DNA of 64,000 bases from Fibrobacteria bacterium (GCA_037447435.1 JBBIGR010000004.1:1-64000), one strand, 5' to 3'; shown: positions 5,212 to 10,394, counted from the stretch's first letter. Translations and numbers: made by a program. Notes: a model not told the origin generated them from the letters alone.

Positions 5212-7098
5212 ATGAAGCTCATAGAATCCATTAATAGTCCTTCCGATTTAAAAAAGATACCGCTCGAACAACTTCCGCAAGTTGCCGAAGAAATCCGCAA
5301 TGTTCTCATTGAAAACGTCAGCCGAAGCGGCGGCCATTTGGCCTCGAGCCTCGGCGCCGTGGACTTGACAATAGCATTGCATTATGTCTTCAATACGCCC
5401 GCGGACAAGCTTGTTTGGGATGTCGGACATCAGGCATATGCCCATAAAATCCTTACTGGTCGCCGGGATAATTTCAGTACCCTGCGGCAATTCAACGGCA
5501 TAAGCGGTTTCCCCCGCATATCCGAAAGTCCTTACGATACCGTTTCGGTCGGACATGCCTCTACTTCCATATCGGCAGCCCTGGGCCTTGCCATGGGACG
5601 CGACCTTAAAAAAGAAAATCATGCGGTTGTGGCAATAATCGGCGACGGATCTCTTTCAGGCGGCCTGGCCTTCGAAGGCCTCAATAATCTCGGCGCAGCC
5701 CAAACCAAAATGATCGTTGTCGTCAACGACAATAAAATGTCGATTTCCAAAAATGTCGGCGCATTGTCCCGATATCTTACCCGCGTCATCACCGATAAAC
5801 GATACAATAAACTCAAAGACGAAGTATGGGAACTTACCGGCAAACTCAACACGTTCGGCAAACGAATCCGTTCCCTCATGCGCAGCATCGACGAAACGGT
5901 CAAGCATTTCGTGATACCGGGCAAGCTGTTCGAAGACATGGGTATGCGTTATTTCGGCCCCATAGACGGACATAACATAAAAGAACTCGTCGAAATCTTA
6001 AAATTTGTCAACGAAAACACCGACGGTCCGGTATTGGTCCATACCATTACGACAAAAGGCAAGGGATATTCCTTTGCCGAAAACGATTCGACGAAATTCC
6101 ACGGCGTGTCCAAATTTTCCATAGACACCGGCGATGTGGTCAAAAACGCAAAAGCAAAGCAAAGCTACAGCGATTTGTTCGGTTCCACGCTTGTCGACAT
6201 AGCGAAAAAACGGTCCGACGTGGTTGCCATTACGGCAGCAATGCCCGACGGCACCGGACTCGCAAAATTCCGCGACGCTTTTCCCGACCGGCTTTTCGAT
6301 GTCGGCATTGCCGAACCGCACGCGGTGACTTTTGCCGCCGGATTGGCGCTTAAAGGTTTAAAACCCGTCGTGGCATTGTATTCGACCTTTTTACAACGCG
6401 CCTACGACCAGCTCATGCACGATGTCGCGCTCGACAATCTGAACGTGGTGTTCTGCATCGACCGCGCCGGAATAGTCGGCGAAGACGGGCCCACGCATCA
6501 CGGCATGTTCGATTTATCGTTTGTCCGGACGGTTCCGAACGCGCTTTTTATGGCGCCCCGAAACGGCACCGAACTCGTCGCCATGCTGCACACCGCAATG
6601 GAATACGCCAAAGGCCCGGTGTTCATCCGCTACGGACGCGGAAGCATTCCCGAAGAGTCAATCGCTTCCGATATCGGCGCTTTACCCTTATATGAACCCG
6701 AAATTATCAAGCAGGGAAAAAACACGGCCCTCATCGCGATCGGCGACATGGTAGCCCCCGCCGTTGCGGCTTCGGATATTCTTGAGGCGCAAGGAATAAG
6801 CCCGACCGTGATCAATGCCCGGTTTGTTAAGCCCTTGTCGCAGGATTTTTACAAAACCCTCTTTGCCTCGTATTCCCATATCGTCACCATGGAAAGCAAC
6901 TCCACGACCGGCGGATTCGGCAGCGGCGTTACGGAATTGGCAAATGCAAGCAATCTCGACAGTGTCCCGCGAATTTTGCAAATCGGCTACCCCGACGTAT
7001 TCATCGAGCACGGCAACAATACGGAACTTTTGAAAAAAATCCGTCTCGATCCCCCGGCCGTCGCACAACGTATCGCCGATTTTGCGTCAAAAAAATAA
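5212..7098 (+). CDS. dxs: 1-deoxy-D-xylulose-5-phosphate synthase
   Basis: GGHLASSLG, WDVGHQAY, GHASTSIS, GDGSLSGG...NDN (ThDP motif), DRAGIVGEDGPTHHG. Confidence 0.97.
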   Translation: MKLIESINSPSDLKKIPLEQLPQVAEEIRNVLIENVSRSGGHLASSLGAVDLTIALHYVFNTPADKLVWDVGHQAYAHKILTGRRDNFSTLRQFNGISGFPRISESPYDTVSVGHASTSISAALGLAMGRDLKKENHAVVAIIGDGSLSGGLAFEGLNNLGAAQTKMIVVVNDNKMSISKNVGALSRYLTRVITDKRYNKLKDEVWELTGKLNTFGKRIRSLMRSIDETVKHFVIPGKLFEDMGMRYFGPIDGHNIKELVEILKFVNENTDGPVLVHTITTKGKGYSFAENDSTKFHGVSKFSIDTGDVVKNAKAKQSYSDLFGSTLVDIAKKRSDVVAITAAMPDGTGLAKFRDAFPDRLFDVGIAEPHAVTFAAGLALKGLKPVVALYSTFLQRAYDQLMHDVALDNLNVVFCIDRAGIVGEDGPTHHGMFDLSFVRTVPNALFMAPRNGTELVAMLHTAMEYAKGPVFIRYGRGSIPEESIASDIGALPLYEPEIIKQGKNTALIAIGDMVAPAVAASDILEAQGISPTVINARFVKPLSQDFYKTLFASYSHIVTMESNSTTGGFGSGVTELANASNLDSVPRILQIGYPDVFIEHGNNTELLKKIRLDPPAVAQRIADFASKK

Positions 7099-7100
7099 TT

Positions 7101-7128
7101 GGAAGGGCGGTTCGCGAATCGCCCTTCC
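7101..7128. terminator. Inverted repeat between convergent dxs and flagellin-like gene (terminator or REP-like)
   Basis: GGAAGGGCGGTTC-GC-GAATCGCCCTTCC immediately after the dxs stop. Confidence 0.65.
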
Positions 7129-7174
7129 GTTTCTTAAAACATTCAATACTATACCCGGAATAACGCTGTCCTTG

Positions 7175-8047
7175 TCACTGGCTTTTTAACCCGTACAGCA
7201 CCAGAACGTTGCGCGCCGACATATTCGATTGCGCGAGCATAGCCAGGGCCGACTGCGACCGGATGTCCGCCGCGGTATACTTTGTCAATTCGTCTGCCTG
7301 GTTGATTTCCATGATGGACTGCTCCGCGCTCTTTTGGTTCGATATGGCCGTATCATTGATATTCGAAAATGCGGTGAGCTGGTCGGAATAACCCGATACG
7401 GTTGCCGTATACGTATTCAAGCTGGTTTGCGCCGCGCTGACCGCGTTTCTTGCCGCCGTGTACGCAAGCGCCGAACTAGCGTACCCCGATTGGTCCGACC
7501 CGATTTGAATGACCGCTGGATTGCTCAGACTTGTCAATTGCGCGGTGGTTACCGCGGGGCTCAGGTTCACCGCGATGCTTGCGCCGGTCGCTCCCGGGCT
7601 CACCGTGATCGTGGCCATGGGATTGGCGCCATTGTTAAGCGGCACGTAACTTCCCATTGTCGTATTGTTCCTGATGCTTTGAATTTCCGTCGCTTTCTGC
7701 AGAAATTCCGCCTGATAGCCGTCTTTCTGATTGTTGTCCGTCGACTGTTGGGACAAATTGATCAGTTCGTTCATCCGCTGCAAATCCGTGTTTATGGAAT
7801 CCGAGGCCGTTTGCGCGGTCGAAAGCACGCCTTTAAAATCGCTAATGTTCTGGTTGATGTTTTCATAACTGTCATAACTGGTTTTCAGGTTCATCGCATG
7901 AGTATAACCGCCCAAATCGTCTCCGGCGGTATTGATCCGCTTGCCCGAAGCAAGACGCAGCAACGAGTCCGACAGTTGCTGCTGAGACTTATTGTAAATA
8001 CCGCCGATGGCCGATGCATTCGCAAAAACAGCCGCGAGCATTCCCAT
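7175..8047 (-). CDS. Flagellin-like protein (second gene of pair)
   Basis: Flagellin N-domain RLASGKRINTAGDD and LQRMNEL; C-domain QSALAMLAQSN; RBS AAAGGAGG upstream. Confidence 0.88.
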   Translation of the reverse strand: MGMLAAVFANASAIGGIYNKSQQQLSDSLLRLASGKRINTAGDDLGGYTHAMNLKTSYDSYENINQNISDFKGVLSTAQTASDSINTDLQRMNELINLSQQSTDNNQKDGYQAEFLQKATEIQSIRNNTTMGSYVPLNNGANPMATITVSPGATGASIAVNLSPAVTTAQLTSLSNPAVIQIGSDQSGYASSALAYTAARNAVSAAQTSLNTYTATVSGYSDQLTAFSNINDTAISNQKSAEQSIMEINQADELTKYTAADIRSQSALAMLAQSNMSARNVLVLYGLKSQ

Positions 8048-8092
8048 TGTGTCCTCCTTTTAAAATTTTTACCTCTATTTTTTATCTCTCGG

Positions 8093-8950
8093 TTACATGC
8101 CGTTAAACAGGGCAAGAACGCTCCGGTTCGACAAATTCGCCTGCGCAAGCATTGCCATCGCAGCCTGCGACTGAATGCTTGCCGACGTATACGTCGCAAG
8201 TTCTTCGGCATCGTTTGTGTCCGAAACCGCCGATATCGCGCCTGCCAAATTCGTTTTTGCCGCGCTGCAAACATTGTAATACGAGTCAAGCGTCGATGAA
8301 AACGACCCTGCCGTCGATATATAGGTATTCGCATTGGTAAGCGCGGTTTGCACCGCGGTCCGGGCTGCCGTATAATCCGCGGCAACCGCGGTATGGTCAA
8401 GCAGCAGCGTTCCGCCGTTGCTCGTTGTTTTTAATGCGGTCAAATTTGCGGGCACTATGGCCTGTGCCGCGAATTGTATCGCAAATGCCGAACCTGCCGA
8501 ATAGCTCGGGTCCAAATAAACGGTACCCAATGTAGCCACCGAGTTGAGCATGTTTTGGCCGTTATAACTCGTATTTGTCACGAGTTGATTTACCTTCGTG
8601 TATAGCTGCGTAAACTCGCTTTGATATGCGTCTTTTGAGTTGTTGTCGGTCGACTGTTGCGACAAATTGATCAATTCGTTCATGCGTTGCAGCGAATTCG
8701 ACACTTCCGTTGCCGTGGATGATGCAACGCCCATGGCGCCTTTCCATTCGGCCAGGCTGCTCATGATATCGTCGTAGCCGTTCGATTGTATGGTCAGGTT
8801 TTGTGCGTGCATATACCCGCCGATATCGTCCGACGGTGATGTAAATTTGTTCCCCGTCGACAAACGCATCATGGATTTGCCCATAGCGATGTTGTTCTGA
8901 TAATAAAAATTGGAAATGTTCTGGGTTGCTGATGAAAGTGAAGAAACCAT
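8093..8950 (-). CDS. Flagellin-like protein (first gene of pair), 285 aa
   Basis: RLSTGNKFTSPSDD, LQRMNEL, TSYNGQNMLN, SQAAMAMLAQAN. Start reassigned to ATG 8950, 4 nt after GGGAGG. Confidence 0.88.
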   Translation of the reverse strand: MVSSLSSATQNISNFYYQNNIAMGKSMMRLSTGNKFTSPSDDIGGYMHAQNLTIQSNGYDDIMSSLAEWKGAMGVASSTATEVSNSLQRMNELINLSQQSTDNNSKDAYQSEFTQLYTKVNQLVTNTSYNGQNMLNSVATLGTVYLDPSYSAGSAFAIQFAAQAIVPANLTALKTTSNGGTLLLDHTAVAADYTAARTAVQTALTNANTYISTAGSFSSTLDSYYNVCSAAKTNLAGAISAVSDTNDAEELATYTSASIQSQAAMAMLAQANLSNRSVLALFNGM

Positions 8951-9181
8951 AAGACCTCCCTTGTGTGTGTGTGACTTCCCTGTCTTCCCGCTCGAGCTTC
9001 CCCGCAGAGCAGGCGACGAATATTGACAAATAAGAATTATCGACCGTGTTTTTCCGCTTCCCCTTTGCCCGCATTTTACAGGCGTTTTCGACATGGCGAT
9101 GGCCGTTACCGAAACCTTCTCCTCAGAGAAGCCCGGCATCCTTCAATGCCAAACCATGACGTTAGTTGTTATGTAATGAGA

Positions 9182-9211
9182 TCAAACGGAAGAATGTATA
9201 GTGGTATGCAT
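9182..9211 (-). other. Mini-ORF MHTTIHSSV* behind a strong RBS
   Basis: GGGAGG-5 nt-ATG(9211)...TGA(9182-9184). Confidence 0.5.
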
Positions 9212-9319
9212 AAAAACCTCCCTTGTGTGTGATAATGACGTCCCTATCGACGCAATAGCGCTTCCCCACGCAATTGCGCCCGTATCGAAAAAACTGCATT
9301 GACTGTTTTGTAAAGTACT

Positions 9320-9346
9320 TTACGGAGTATTACGAAGAATGTTCAT
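9320..9346 (-). other. Mini-ORF MNILRNTP* behind a strong RBS
   Basis: GGGAGG-5 nt-ATG(9346)...TAA(9320-9322). Confidence 0.5.
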
Positions 9347-9488
9347 GCGGACCTCCCTTGTGTGACAAAACTATTCAACCCCGTTTTTGGCAAAGCTTCC
9401 CCGAATTGCCGGAAACGGTCTATTTTCTTTTTTTTCAGCTGTAGGAGATTCGACTTGCGTCCGATCCTCTATAGCTTCCCCGTTTATT

Positions 9489-9515
9489 TTATCGGCAGAT
9501 ACGGCAATTACTTGA
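9489..9515 (-). promoter_or_regulatory. Sigma28 (FliA/SigD)-type promoter
   Basis: TCAAGTAA-N11-GCCGATAA versus consensus TAAAGTTT-N11-GCCGATAA; exact -10 box and spacing; points toward the flagellin-like genes. Confidence 0.8.
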
Positions 9516-9567
9516 GCGGAAAAAAAATAAAAAAGAAGAATTTATTAGCAGCCTTAAGTAGCGTGAG

Positions 9568-9669
9568 AAACAGAACTGTTCCCGTCTCAGCCTAAGGACG
9601 GGGATCCCTAACTCGTCCCATGAAATGGGACGAGTTAGGGATGGCCATGAGACGGGAATAGTTCTGTTT
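9568..9669. repeat. Nested long inverted repeat (MITE/REPIN-like)
   Basis: Outer 22-bp arms AAACAGAACT(G/A)TTCCCGTCTCA with one mismatch; inner perfect 18-bp stem at 9604-9642. Confidence 0.8.
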
Positions 9670-9713
9670 ATAAATTGCTTAGTAAAATGATTAGGCTTAG
9701 GATAATGCAGCCG

Positions 9714-10394
9714 TCACGGGCGATTGAGCCCGAAGAAGATAAAACCGTACGCGTAGGCGATCGATTCGGCGATAACGGCCCTCACGCCCGCACTGTACCG
9801 GTACCAATGATTTTTGTCGTAAGAATTATCGTTGCAGGCAATTTCACCGATGGAATACTGTTTTCCCAAAACCTTTGCAAAGAGCAAATGCGAGCGCCTC
9901 GTATGACAACCAATGGAAAACAAATTAAAAACAGTGTCCCTGCGGTTGTTTTTTTCCAGCCATTTTTGCACGGCAAGTGCAGAGGCAAAGGTCCGGTCCT
10001 TTTCAACATATCCGGCATCGACGGCATACACTTTGGAACTGTCGATACCGAGTTTTCGTAATGTCAAAGCGCCAAGCTCGGCGAAGTTTTTGTACCCGCA
10101 TAAATAACTGCCGATATCAAGCGGCCCGCCCGTGGAAAGGCAATAGGCGTACGAATGCGTTTTAAACTCTTGCGCAGCCTGTTCCAATGCGTAATCCGGC
10201 AACCATCCTTCGACGATCAGGACTTGCGCGTTTTTCGGGGTAACGGGTGATAAAAAGGAATGGATGTTTTTAAGAAACAAAAAGAATCCAGCGGTACAAA
10301 GCACAAAAATCATCAGCCAGGTCGCAATGCCGGGAACCCAAATTTCGCGTCGCTTAAAAAACGGATTACTTTTCAGCATGGTCGATTTGCGCAT
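9714..10394 (-). CDS. DUF218 / YdcF-ElyC-like membrane-anchored protein
   Basis: N-terminal TM; LIVEGW, STGG, DRTFASA, HTRRS, VIAE motifs. Confidence 0.75.
   Translation of the reverse strand: MRKSTMLKSNPFFKRREIWVPGIATWLMIFVLCTAGFFLFLKNIHSFLSPVTPKNAQVLIVEGWLPDYALEQAAQEFKTHSYAYCLSTGGPLDIGSYLCGYKNFAELGALTLRKLGIDSSKVYAVDAGYVEKDRTFASALAVQKWLEKNNRRDTVFNLFSIGCHTRRSHLLFAKVLGKQYSIGEIACNDNSYDKNHWYRYSAGVRAVIAESIAYAYGFIFFGLNRP

Follow-up and report, generated by a model that had tools for sequence, protein, structure and literature searches.

The leader of a flagellin-like gene in a Fibrobacteria bacterium consists of three copies of one control cassette. It probably belongs to a sigma28 operon that comprises two divergent flagellin-like genes, and a trans-encoded small RNA (sRNA), which has a sigma28 promoter of its own, would pair with it. 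The window analysed is a stretch of 64,000 nt (GCA_037447435.1 JBBIGR010000004.1:1-64000; source genome G000, 99.57% complete), in which the leader occupies the minus strand at 8951-9515 and precedes the flagellin-like ATG at 8950. The anatomy of the sRNA, its conservation, complementarity and co-occurrence, and its specificity for divergent flagellin paralogues were shown computationally. An earlier note had read the leader as an array of looped GGA sites forming a CsrB-like sponge within a flagellin transcript. Since the repeated G-rich words are complementary to a separate sRNA, the leader looks like an sRNA target with extra CsrA sites, and not like a CsrB-like sponge.

Promoter and composition of the leader

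The sigma28 promoter that the earlier note had placed at 9515-9489 (TCAAGTAA-N11-GCCGATAA) is present, and its consensus and spacing were also found before orthologues. The promoter motif followed by a gap of 7-9 nt to GGGGAAG is repeated before both orthologues and paralogues. The flagellin-like start at 8950 was likewise supported by Pfam Flagellin_N and Flagellin_C matches. Both operon genes have weak Flagellin_N matches in Pfam and fall below every NCBIfam cut-off, and the second probably shares its transcript with the first.

The minus strand of 8951-9515 does contain 16 GGA, as well as five GGGGAAGC (9003-8996, 9063-9056, 9267-9260, 9402-9395 and 9481-9474). However, when chance levels were drawn from 2000 dinucleotide shuffles of the leader, GGA was not enriched (16 vs 11.97±2.45, with 8% of the shuffles reaching 16), and at least 16 GGA occurred in 3% of genomic 565-nt windows. 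ANGGA, which accounts for 6 of the 16 GGA, was not significantly enriched by the same shuffles (6 vs 3.4 expected, p 0.11), and only one of the 16 is CANGGANG. Specific longer words did stand out: five GGGGAAGC were present vs 0.03 expected and three AGGGAGG vs 0.06 expected, numbers reached in 0/2000 shuffles. In addition, CACACAAGGGAGG, which the earlier note did not mention, occurs three times and is followed each time by an ATG. A search of 7000-10000 against Rfam gave no match up to E 5.

That many GGA sit in hairpin loops was upheld in part: 8 of the 16 have a predicted unpaired probability of at least 0.5, but the entire leader folds much like its shuffles (z -1.29; 11/100 shuffles equally stable). 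Among the four hairpins quoted in the earlier note, GAC-AGGGAA-GTC and GGCAA..TTGCC are kept in L222, a metagenome locus from a relative with 64% protein identity, whereas GGCAT-TGAAGG-ATGCC is not. For CGTC-GATAGG-GACG the better register is GAT-AGGGAC-GTC, as kept in relatives. Upstream of the promoter, at 9568-9669, lies a nested inverted repeat with 22-nt outer arms and perfect 18-nt inner arms, which has four copies of 78-85% elsewhere in the genome and resembles a REP- or MITE-like element.

Three tandem cassettes and their conservation

In each cassette a hairpin with GGGGAA in its loop comes first, then as a rule a CsrA-type hexaloop, and last ACACAAGGGAGG as the ribosome site, which lies about 45 nt from the GGGGAAG loop (Table 1). 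Cassettes 1 and 2 precede mini-ORFs of 8-9 codons, whereas cassette 3 precedes the divergent flagellin. Cassette 1 has no middle CsrA hexaloop, and GATAGGGATATC is found at the corresponding place in L222; the duplex of its CACACAAGGGAGG with the sRNA is predicted at -28.5 kcal/mol. In the L222 leader the spacers have diverged, but the promoter and the three cassettes are retained, as are both CsrA hexaloops and a pair of 9-codon ORFs; the GGCAT..ATGCC hairpin and the 9063 repeat are lost. The conserved 16-nt block listed in the table reads TTGACA on the plus strand and has no exact copy elsewhere in the genome.

Table 1. Features of the leader and operon in the window
Feature	Position	Strand	Basis or remark
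sigma28 (FliA) promoter, CTCAAGT ... GCCGATAA	9489..9516	-	Sequence; predicted start near 9482-9481
GGGGAAGC at predicted 5' end, putative pairing site for sRNA loop 2	9474..9481	-	Kept in L222
5' hairpin after first seed	9437..9476	-	Fold; partly kept in L222
Cassette 1 hairpin, GGGGAAGC (9402-9395) at tip	9381..9418	-	Inverted repeat I10; kept in L222
Cassette 1 CACACAAGGGAGG, ribosome site, ANGGA site and putative sRNA loop 1 pairing site	9352..9364	-
Predicted mini-ORF 1, MNILRNTP, 8 codons	9320..9346	-	9-codon ORF at same place in L222
Cassette 2 hairpin, GGGGAA loop 9267-9262	9249..9280	-	Inverted repeat I22; loop unpaired probability 1.00
Cassette 2 CsrA-type hexaloop GAT-AGGGAC-GTC	9237..9248	-	22 nt before ribosome-site GGA; L222 version GATAGGGATGTC
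Cassette 2 CACACAAGGGAGG, ribosome site, CsrA site and putative sRNA loop 1 site	9217..9229	-
Predicted mini-ORF 2, MHTTIHSSV, 9 codons	9182..9211	-	G-poor; TTCTTC (Ser-Ser); L222 equivalent MKAPFISSQ
GGCAT-TGAAGG-ATGCC hairpin	9135..9150	-	Absent from L222, not conserved
Lone GGGGAAGC without ribosome site	9056..9063	-	Gap in L222, not conserved
16-nt block TTCTTATTTGTCAATA	9021..9036	-	Identical in L222 amid diverged spacer
Cassette 3 hairpin, GGGGAA loop 9003-8998	8988..9012	-	Loop unpaired probability 0.97; arms covary across relatives
Cassette 3 CsrA hexaloop GAC-AGGGAA-GTC, sole CANGGANG	8973..8984	-	20 nt before ribosome-site GGA; identical in L222
Cassette 3 CACACAAGGGAGG, ribosome site of flagellin-like gene and putative sRNA loop 1 site	8955..8967	-
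Divergent flagellin-like gene 1, 285 aa	8093..8950	-	Pfam PF00669 E 3.5e-17, PF00700 E 2.6e-8
Divergent flagellin-like gene 2, 290 aa, plain ribosome site	7175..8047	-	Weak sRNA pairing score, -20.5
Terminator-like hairpin closing operon	7100..7129		Predicted on + strand; T-run also after it on minus strand

The same cassette stands before this flagellin clade across the Chitinivibrionia, for which a set of 81 genomes was used (72 flagellated and nine non-flagellated); related genomes in this set do not count as independent. The orthologous leaders read GGGGAAG hairpin loop, often ANGGAN hexaloop, ACAAGGGAGG and ATG in that order, and the pattern GGGGAAG-N12..42-ACAAGGGAGG was found in 49 of the 81 genomes, vs four hits in four genomes for a reversed control. 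An alignment-free test of the hairpin arms gave -15.7 kcal/mol for cognate vs -7.5 for non-cognate pairs (n=55), an arm's own partner being the best in 23/55 and among the top three in 40/55; these 55 rows include three that are not cassettes (L090, L099 and L120), which were dropped for the CsrA-site statistics (n=52). The cassette loop has a predicted unpaired probability of 0.86.

A predicted sigma28-dependent small RNA complementary to the cassette

The cassette search revealed a stand-alone antisense copy at G000:C25:31769-31913 (+), predicted to give an RNA of about 145 nt. About one pattern match per genome has no gene downstream, and there a sigma28 promoter on the opposite side points into the element, which a terminator closes. 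In G000 the sRNA gene lies between a DEAD-box-type helicase gene, upstream, and an unrelated gene. The sRNA region (G000:C25:31735-31913 (+), L087:736-914) is placed in many relatives between a conserved gene of about 255 aa and a long conserved gene on the same strand.

A sigma28 promoter on the C-rich strand was found for 48 of 50 copies; of the other two, one is cut by a contig end and one escaped the pattern. By a crude terminator test, 43 of 50 have a terminator-like hairpin followed by a U-run. Two near-invariant loops, CACCUCCCUUGUGUG and CUUCCCC, are complementary to the ribosome site and the loop of the cassette. Only CACCTCCCTTGTGTG and CTTCCCC form invariant columns among 36 aligned copies, and they are colinear with their complements in the cassette; loop 1 variants occur among later-found copies (G057, G060, G073 and G074). 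Both loops are predicted to be unpaired (0.98 and 0.94).

Of the stems, RNAalifold run on a MAFFT alignment picked up those of the loop-1 hairpin and the terminator, the others having been misaligned, and an alignment-free arm test was used instead. It shows covariation in the stem beneath loop 2 (cognate -14.3 vs non-cognate -7.9 kcal/mol; top three in 24/32; n=32), whereas the outer arms P1/P2 discriminate poorly (cognate best in 7/32). Two-sided changes were seen at 27/30 pairs in a model-fitted alignment, which is biased towards structure. Alignment A3 has 46 rows, three of which cover the terminator alone.

With a covariance model (E<1e-6) the sRNA was found in 50 of the 81 genomes, to which a divergent copy in G073 was added by eye. 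It is thus present in 51 of the 72 flagellated and in none of the nine non-flagellated genomes of the class, and a further copy was found in a genome from outside it (G293). When all species genomes were scanned for the exact pattern, 45 stretches were returned, 43 titled as Fibrobacterota lineages and two only as 'bacterium'. In Rfam, seven loci (six with an sRNA copy, and leader L080) and the window genome's own copy had only matches at chance level, with scores far below the gathering cut-offs, and a search of a phage collection with the sRNA gave no match. Searches with variant sRNA patterns in G053-55, G075, G079, G025, G026, G041, G052 and G024 yielded matches only at control level. The class genomes G017-G024, G051 and G052 are flagellated and have very long flagellin frames (630-870 aa); with these queries neither the sRNA, the cassette nor a C7-type paralogue (described below) was found in them.

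Upstream cassettes and mini-ORFs

Gene-less upstream cassettes occur in eight genomes from three families (G000, G067, G068-G071, G044 and G045) and at L222, and many other loci have one cassette per gene. For this comparison L043 was removed from the list of upstream cassettes, and ORFs truncated by contig ends were scored as genes. Twelve of the 16 upstream cassettes have an ATG, which in 10/12 opens an ORF of 7-9 codons, and four have none. The RNA that follows them is G-poor and unstructured compared with that after 46 gene cassettes (G 7.6 vs 12.0; MFE -3.7 vs -9.8 per 60 nt). The same stretches show no enrichment in C (12.9 vs 14.3, same 16 and 46 cassettes), so that composition gives weak support for putative Rho sites. 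The genomes that contribute these cassettes are related, and the rows are thus not independent. The motif TTCYTC was found with 9/16 upstream vs 2/46 gene cassettes, in 8/9 as in-frame Ser-Ser; it could pair weakly with the GGGGAA loop or the ribosome site, or serve as codons. In G044 the upstream ORF (L060:1539-1980) is 141 codons long because of the expansion of a CCGATA/CCGACA hexamer (Asp-Thr repeat); it begins with an RIYSS motif, like the mini-ORF of G067.

The upstream cassettes might be leftovers of deleted flagellin paralogues, with cassette 3 alone regulatory, a reading that is compatible with an sRNA acting there. In many relatives the cassettes do belong to tandem arrays in which each precedes a complete flagellin-like gene, some mini-ORFs start with M-x-S-S like the flagellin-like N-terminus, and the orthologous loci of G061, G066, G072, G074 and G078 have a single cassette. 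However, the cassettes, the seeds and the ORF lengths are kept while the spacers diverge, 10/12 ORFs have 7-9 codons, and TTCYTC marks the upstream copies and hardly the gene cassettes. Furthermore, the first flagellin-like gene start of G068-G070 has CsrA-type sites only, and sRNA sites were thus found only on the upstream cassettes. We regard leftovers as an unlikely explanation of the upstream cassettes. With regard to function, translation-coupled attenuation or a decay relay for the downstream genes is a serious possibility, although it falls short of being probable, and a role as decoy, by which a threshold would be set for the sRNA and CsrA, is only slightly less likely; it is unlikely that the upstream cassettes are relics, and some other role seems improbable.

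Predicted targets and specificity

When both loops were scored for pairing, the window gene ranked 1 of 7816 crude start regions in G000 (-45.6 vs a mean of -18.1, sd 5.1). With the whole core, a flagellin-like leader on contig C7 ranked 1 and the window leader 2 of the same 7816. Canonical flagellins scored -16 to -29 vs -46. As the sRNA had been found via the cassette pattern, the complementarity and the genome-wide rank are partly circular. Two sites per cassette are predicted, giving multi-site pairing over the ribosome site of the minor flagellin; in equilibrium co-folding with cassette 2, loop 2 stays closed.

The C7 gene, a second target by prediction (G000:C7:23249-24620 (+), L009), encodes a divergent flagellin-like protein, has GGGGAAG at +1 of its leader and is followed by a 117-aa gene; the leader matches the loop-2 arm of the sRNA at 21/22 positions. 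Exact GGGGAAG directly after the -10 box was found in 43/50 C7-type leaders. Moreover, when each genus was represented by one genome (n=22), the five variable bases that flank the loop-2 seed fitted the C7-type leader of their own genome better than those of other genomes (3.14 matches vs about 2.0; overall p<1e-4, within-family p 0.005; six variants having been tested). This co-variation is weaker over flanks of 10-16 nt (within-family p 0.02-0.26), and in an ungapped-free duplex version the difference was no more than -10.5 vs -7.9. The C7-type leaders offer support for the predicted pairing that is independent of the motif search.

A third sigma28 gene (G000:C52:20613-21511 (+), L201) has (A/G)GGGAAG at +1 and CAGGGAGGTGC before a 261-aa protein, and is likely, from these motifs, to be a third target. 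Leaders of this kind were found in G000 and G061 (L192); the 261-aa protein matched no Pfam family and gave a low-score Atlas lead only.

In favour of the pairing, G025 and G026 have neither the sRNA nor the leader motif. Against it, the C7-type leaders of G053 and G054 (genomes 95-96% complete) have retained GGGGAAG at +1, but the sRNA was not found there; in G075 and G079, assemblies of 550 and 940 contigs, cassettes are present and the sRNA was not found. Such GGGGAAG leaders in G053 and G054 would fit an element that mimics a leader by acting from its G-rich strand. They would also fit the recognition of GGGGAAG and ACAAGGGAGG, in element and leaders alike, by some RNA- or DNA-binding protein; the complementarity would then result from inverted duplication only. 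The G-rich strand also folds nearly as well, the C-rich strand being barely favoured for the core (-29.9 vs -28.7; 28/39 copies). Nevertheless, this is improbable: the promoters and terminators counted above face the C-rich strand, G-U exceeds A-C there by 73 to 26 (in the fitted alignment), the seed flanks co-vary, and FlbT, Hfq and ProQ were not found in the genome.

CsrA sites and FliW

The genome was searched for csrA, fliW and fliA, as the earlier note had suggested, and all are present. There is one csrA (79 aa), located after fliW, and flagellin, fliW and csrA are adjacent on C38, so that a FliW-CsrA-flagellin partner switch appears to be encoded. G000 also has rho, whereas Hfq, ProQ (PF04352) and FlbT were not found in this 99.57% complete assembly; FlbT was accordingly rejected as a candidate binding protein. 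One of its 11 Flagellin_N matches is read as FlgL from sequence and position.

The involvement of CsrA, as opposed to a CsrB-like array, is supported by the cassettes themselves. YANGGANG lies between hairpin and ribosome site in 30/52 cassettes vs 0.8 expected, and ANGGA at the middle element in 35/52 vs 7.0 expected. The spacing from the middle site to the ribosome-site GGA is 20 nt in 19/35 and 20-22 nt in 28/35. The middle site and this spacing of about 20 nt indicate that the typical cassette contains a two-site CsrA operator, and cassettes 2 and 3 qualify by sites and spacing as operators of the hag/flaA type. In C. jejuni flaA, a spacing of 18-21 nt has been discussed for the CsrA dimer (PMC4894983). 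The CsrA consensus includes a conserved A (PMC7652899), in place of which GGGGAAGC has a G, and GGGGAAGC is the exact complement of sRNA loop 2. The canonical flagellin leaders of G000 have better CsrA sites (GCAAGGATGC ... ACAAGGAGGT): four canonical flagellins carry GCAAGGAYGC ... ACAAGGAGGT, which is near the CsrA consensus, and no GGGGAAG. An ORF-less two-site operator, GACAGGGATGT ... ACAAGGAGG with no ATG, was observed at the 5' end of a flagellin-like operon leader in G077 (L102:700-830) and G076 (L030:165-290).

These data bear on the sponge proposed in the earlier note, by which the leader would titrate CsrA upon sigma28 activation and all GGA, GGGGAAGC included, would be CsrA sites. 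In its favour, csrA and fliW are present, two cassettes have true two-site operators, so that there would be room on the leader for two or three CsrA dimers, the four upstream cassettes without ATG in relatives keep a CsrA-type site, and the C. jejuni flaA leader titrates CsrA, a CsrA-titrating flagellin leader having thus already been described in Campylobacter (PMC4894983). On the other hand, the GGA count is ordinary, ANGGA is a minority among them, GGGGA lacks the conserved A, better CsrA sites lie in the canonical leaders, a terminator search of 8951-9515 found none between leader and gene, and a sponge leaves unexplained an antisense RNA gene whose invariant loops are complementary to the leader. 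We regard a CsrB-like sponge as improbable.

Proposed mechanism

We prefer the reading in which the leader is an sRNA target. Sigma28 would transcribe both the operon and the sRNA, repressor included, so that sigma28 would activate the minor flagellin-like genes together with their repressor. The sRNA, which we infer to be expressed, would seed by a loop-loop contact on the exposed G-rich loop or on the 5' end, and pairing would then extend across the ribosome site and block initiation without Hfq or ProQ. The minor flagellin-like genes would be repressed while the canonical flagellins escape. CsrA, gated by FliW, would work on the same ribosome site, most cassettes carrying a two-site operator. 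The upstream cassettes with their 8-9-codon ORFs over G-poor, unstructured RNA appear to be maintained by selection. In the relay version, which we slightly prefer over the decoy, a blocked mini-ORF would expose the RNA to Rho or to decay; relics appear less likely.

More broadly, and only tentatively, the class may have a chaperone-free sigma28 sRNA with two loop contacts, and in some lineages duplicated cassettes with 7-9-codon mini-ORFs may act as serial translation-coupled attenuators that control operon transcription under the sRNA and CsrA/FliW. If so, the serial attenuators would be copies of the gene's own ribosome site, and in G068-G070 the upstream cassettes would be the last remaining sRNA sites.

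Comparison with known systems

The closest counterpart in action is FlaX of Vibrio cholerae, a multi-site sRNA on the leader of the minor flagellin flaB that covers the ribosome site and shapes filament composition, and which is an RNase E product of the flaA 3' UTR and depends on ProQ (PMC11879080). Like FlaX on flaB, the present sRNA is predicted to pair at several sites over the ribosome site of a minor flagellin leader. Unlike FlaX, as described there, it comes with a sigma28 promoter and a terminator of its own at a site away from flagellin genes, occurs where ProQ and Hfq were not found, and presents two C-rich loops to repeated cassettes that overlap CsrA operators. With its own promoter, no ProQ found and no Rfam match, it does not appear to belong to the FlaX family.

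Sigma28-dependent pairing sRNAs that tune flagellin level or filament length are UhpU, MotR, FliX and FlgO of E. coli (PMC10578931) and CJnc170/FlmR of C. jejuni (PMC11187230), with which our sRNA shares a FliA-type promoter. The E. coli set is UTR-derived and Hfq is a keyword of PMC10578931; the abstracts mention no repeated target cassette with mini-ORFs. By its promoter, its terminator and its conserved structure, the sRNA would be of the sigma28-dependent, trans-acting base-pairing kind.

The cassettes resemble B. subtilis hag and C. jejuni flaA in having an ANGGAN hexaloop and a ribosome-site copy about 20 nt apart, together with csrA and fliW (PMC7652899, PMC4894983). They differ from these, as described in the same two papers, in that the operator is repeated, is preceded by a GGGGAA-loop hairpin and lies on divergent and not on major flagellins, and in an extra ribosome-site G (ACAAGGGAGG) that matches the sRNA. 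Like CsrB/CsrC and RsmY/RsmZ, the leader has several looped GGA in one RNA; unlike those RNAs, as described (PMC4894983, PMC7652899), it has few ANGGA, three ribosome sites with ATG, no terminator of its own and no Rfam match. Judged by ANGGA density, by Rfam and by the want of a non-coding transcript with its own terminator, it would not belong to the CsrB/RsmZ-type sponges, although csrA is present and processing is possible. Finally, a Rho site can become accessible when an sRNA or CsrA stops ribosomes from translating a leader or uORF, as in ChiX-chiPQ, CsrA-pgaA and the tnaC, speFL and cruR uORFs (PMC12360218). As in such conditional Rho termination, rho is present and the sRNA or CsrA could block leader translation; unlike in the systems treated in that source, duplicated cassettes, each with a ribosome site and an ORF of 7-9 codons, are the candidate sensors, and the Rho site is putative.

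A search of mainly open-access literature on Chitinivibrionia (Fibrobacterota) found no study of an sRNA or of flagellin regulation, and the flagellar sRNA of this class is apparently undescribed. Sponges for sRNAs derived from mRNAs are known; in the same mainly open-access literature, no flagellin leader acting as an sRNA sponge or decoy, and no loop-loop counterpart, was found. If the proposal holds, the Chitinivibrionia would gain a conserved base-pairing sRNA with predicted targets. It suggests how ten flagellin paralogues sort into divergent and canonical ones, by one extra ribosome-site G and a GGGGAAG loop. sRNA pairing and CsrA/FliW control would fall on identical nucleotides in a genome in which Hfq and ProQ were not detected, and the tandem mini-ORF cassettes would offer a testable case of decoy vs attenuator arising from a duplicated ribosome site. 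Elsewhere in G000, at C20:9950-10228, two convergent sigma28-like promoters lie about 280 nt apart with no long ORF and several hairpins between them, and this region possibly encodes further sRNAs.
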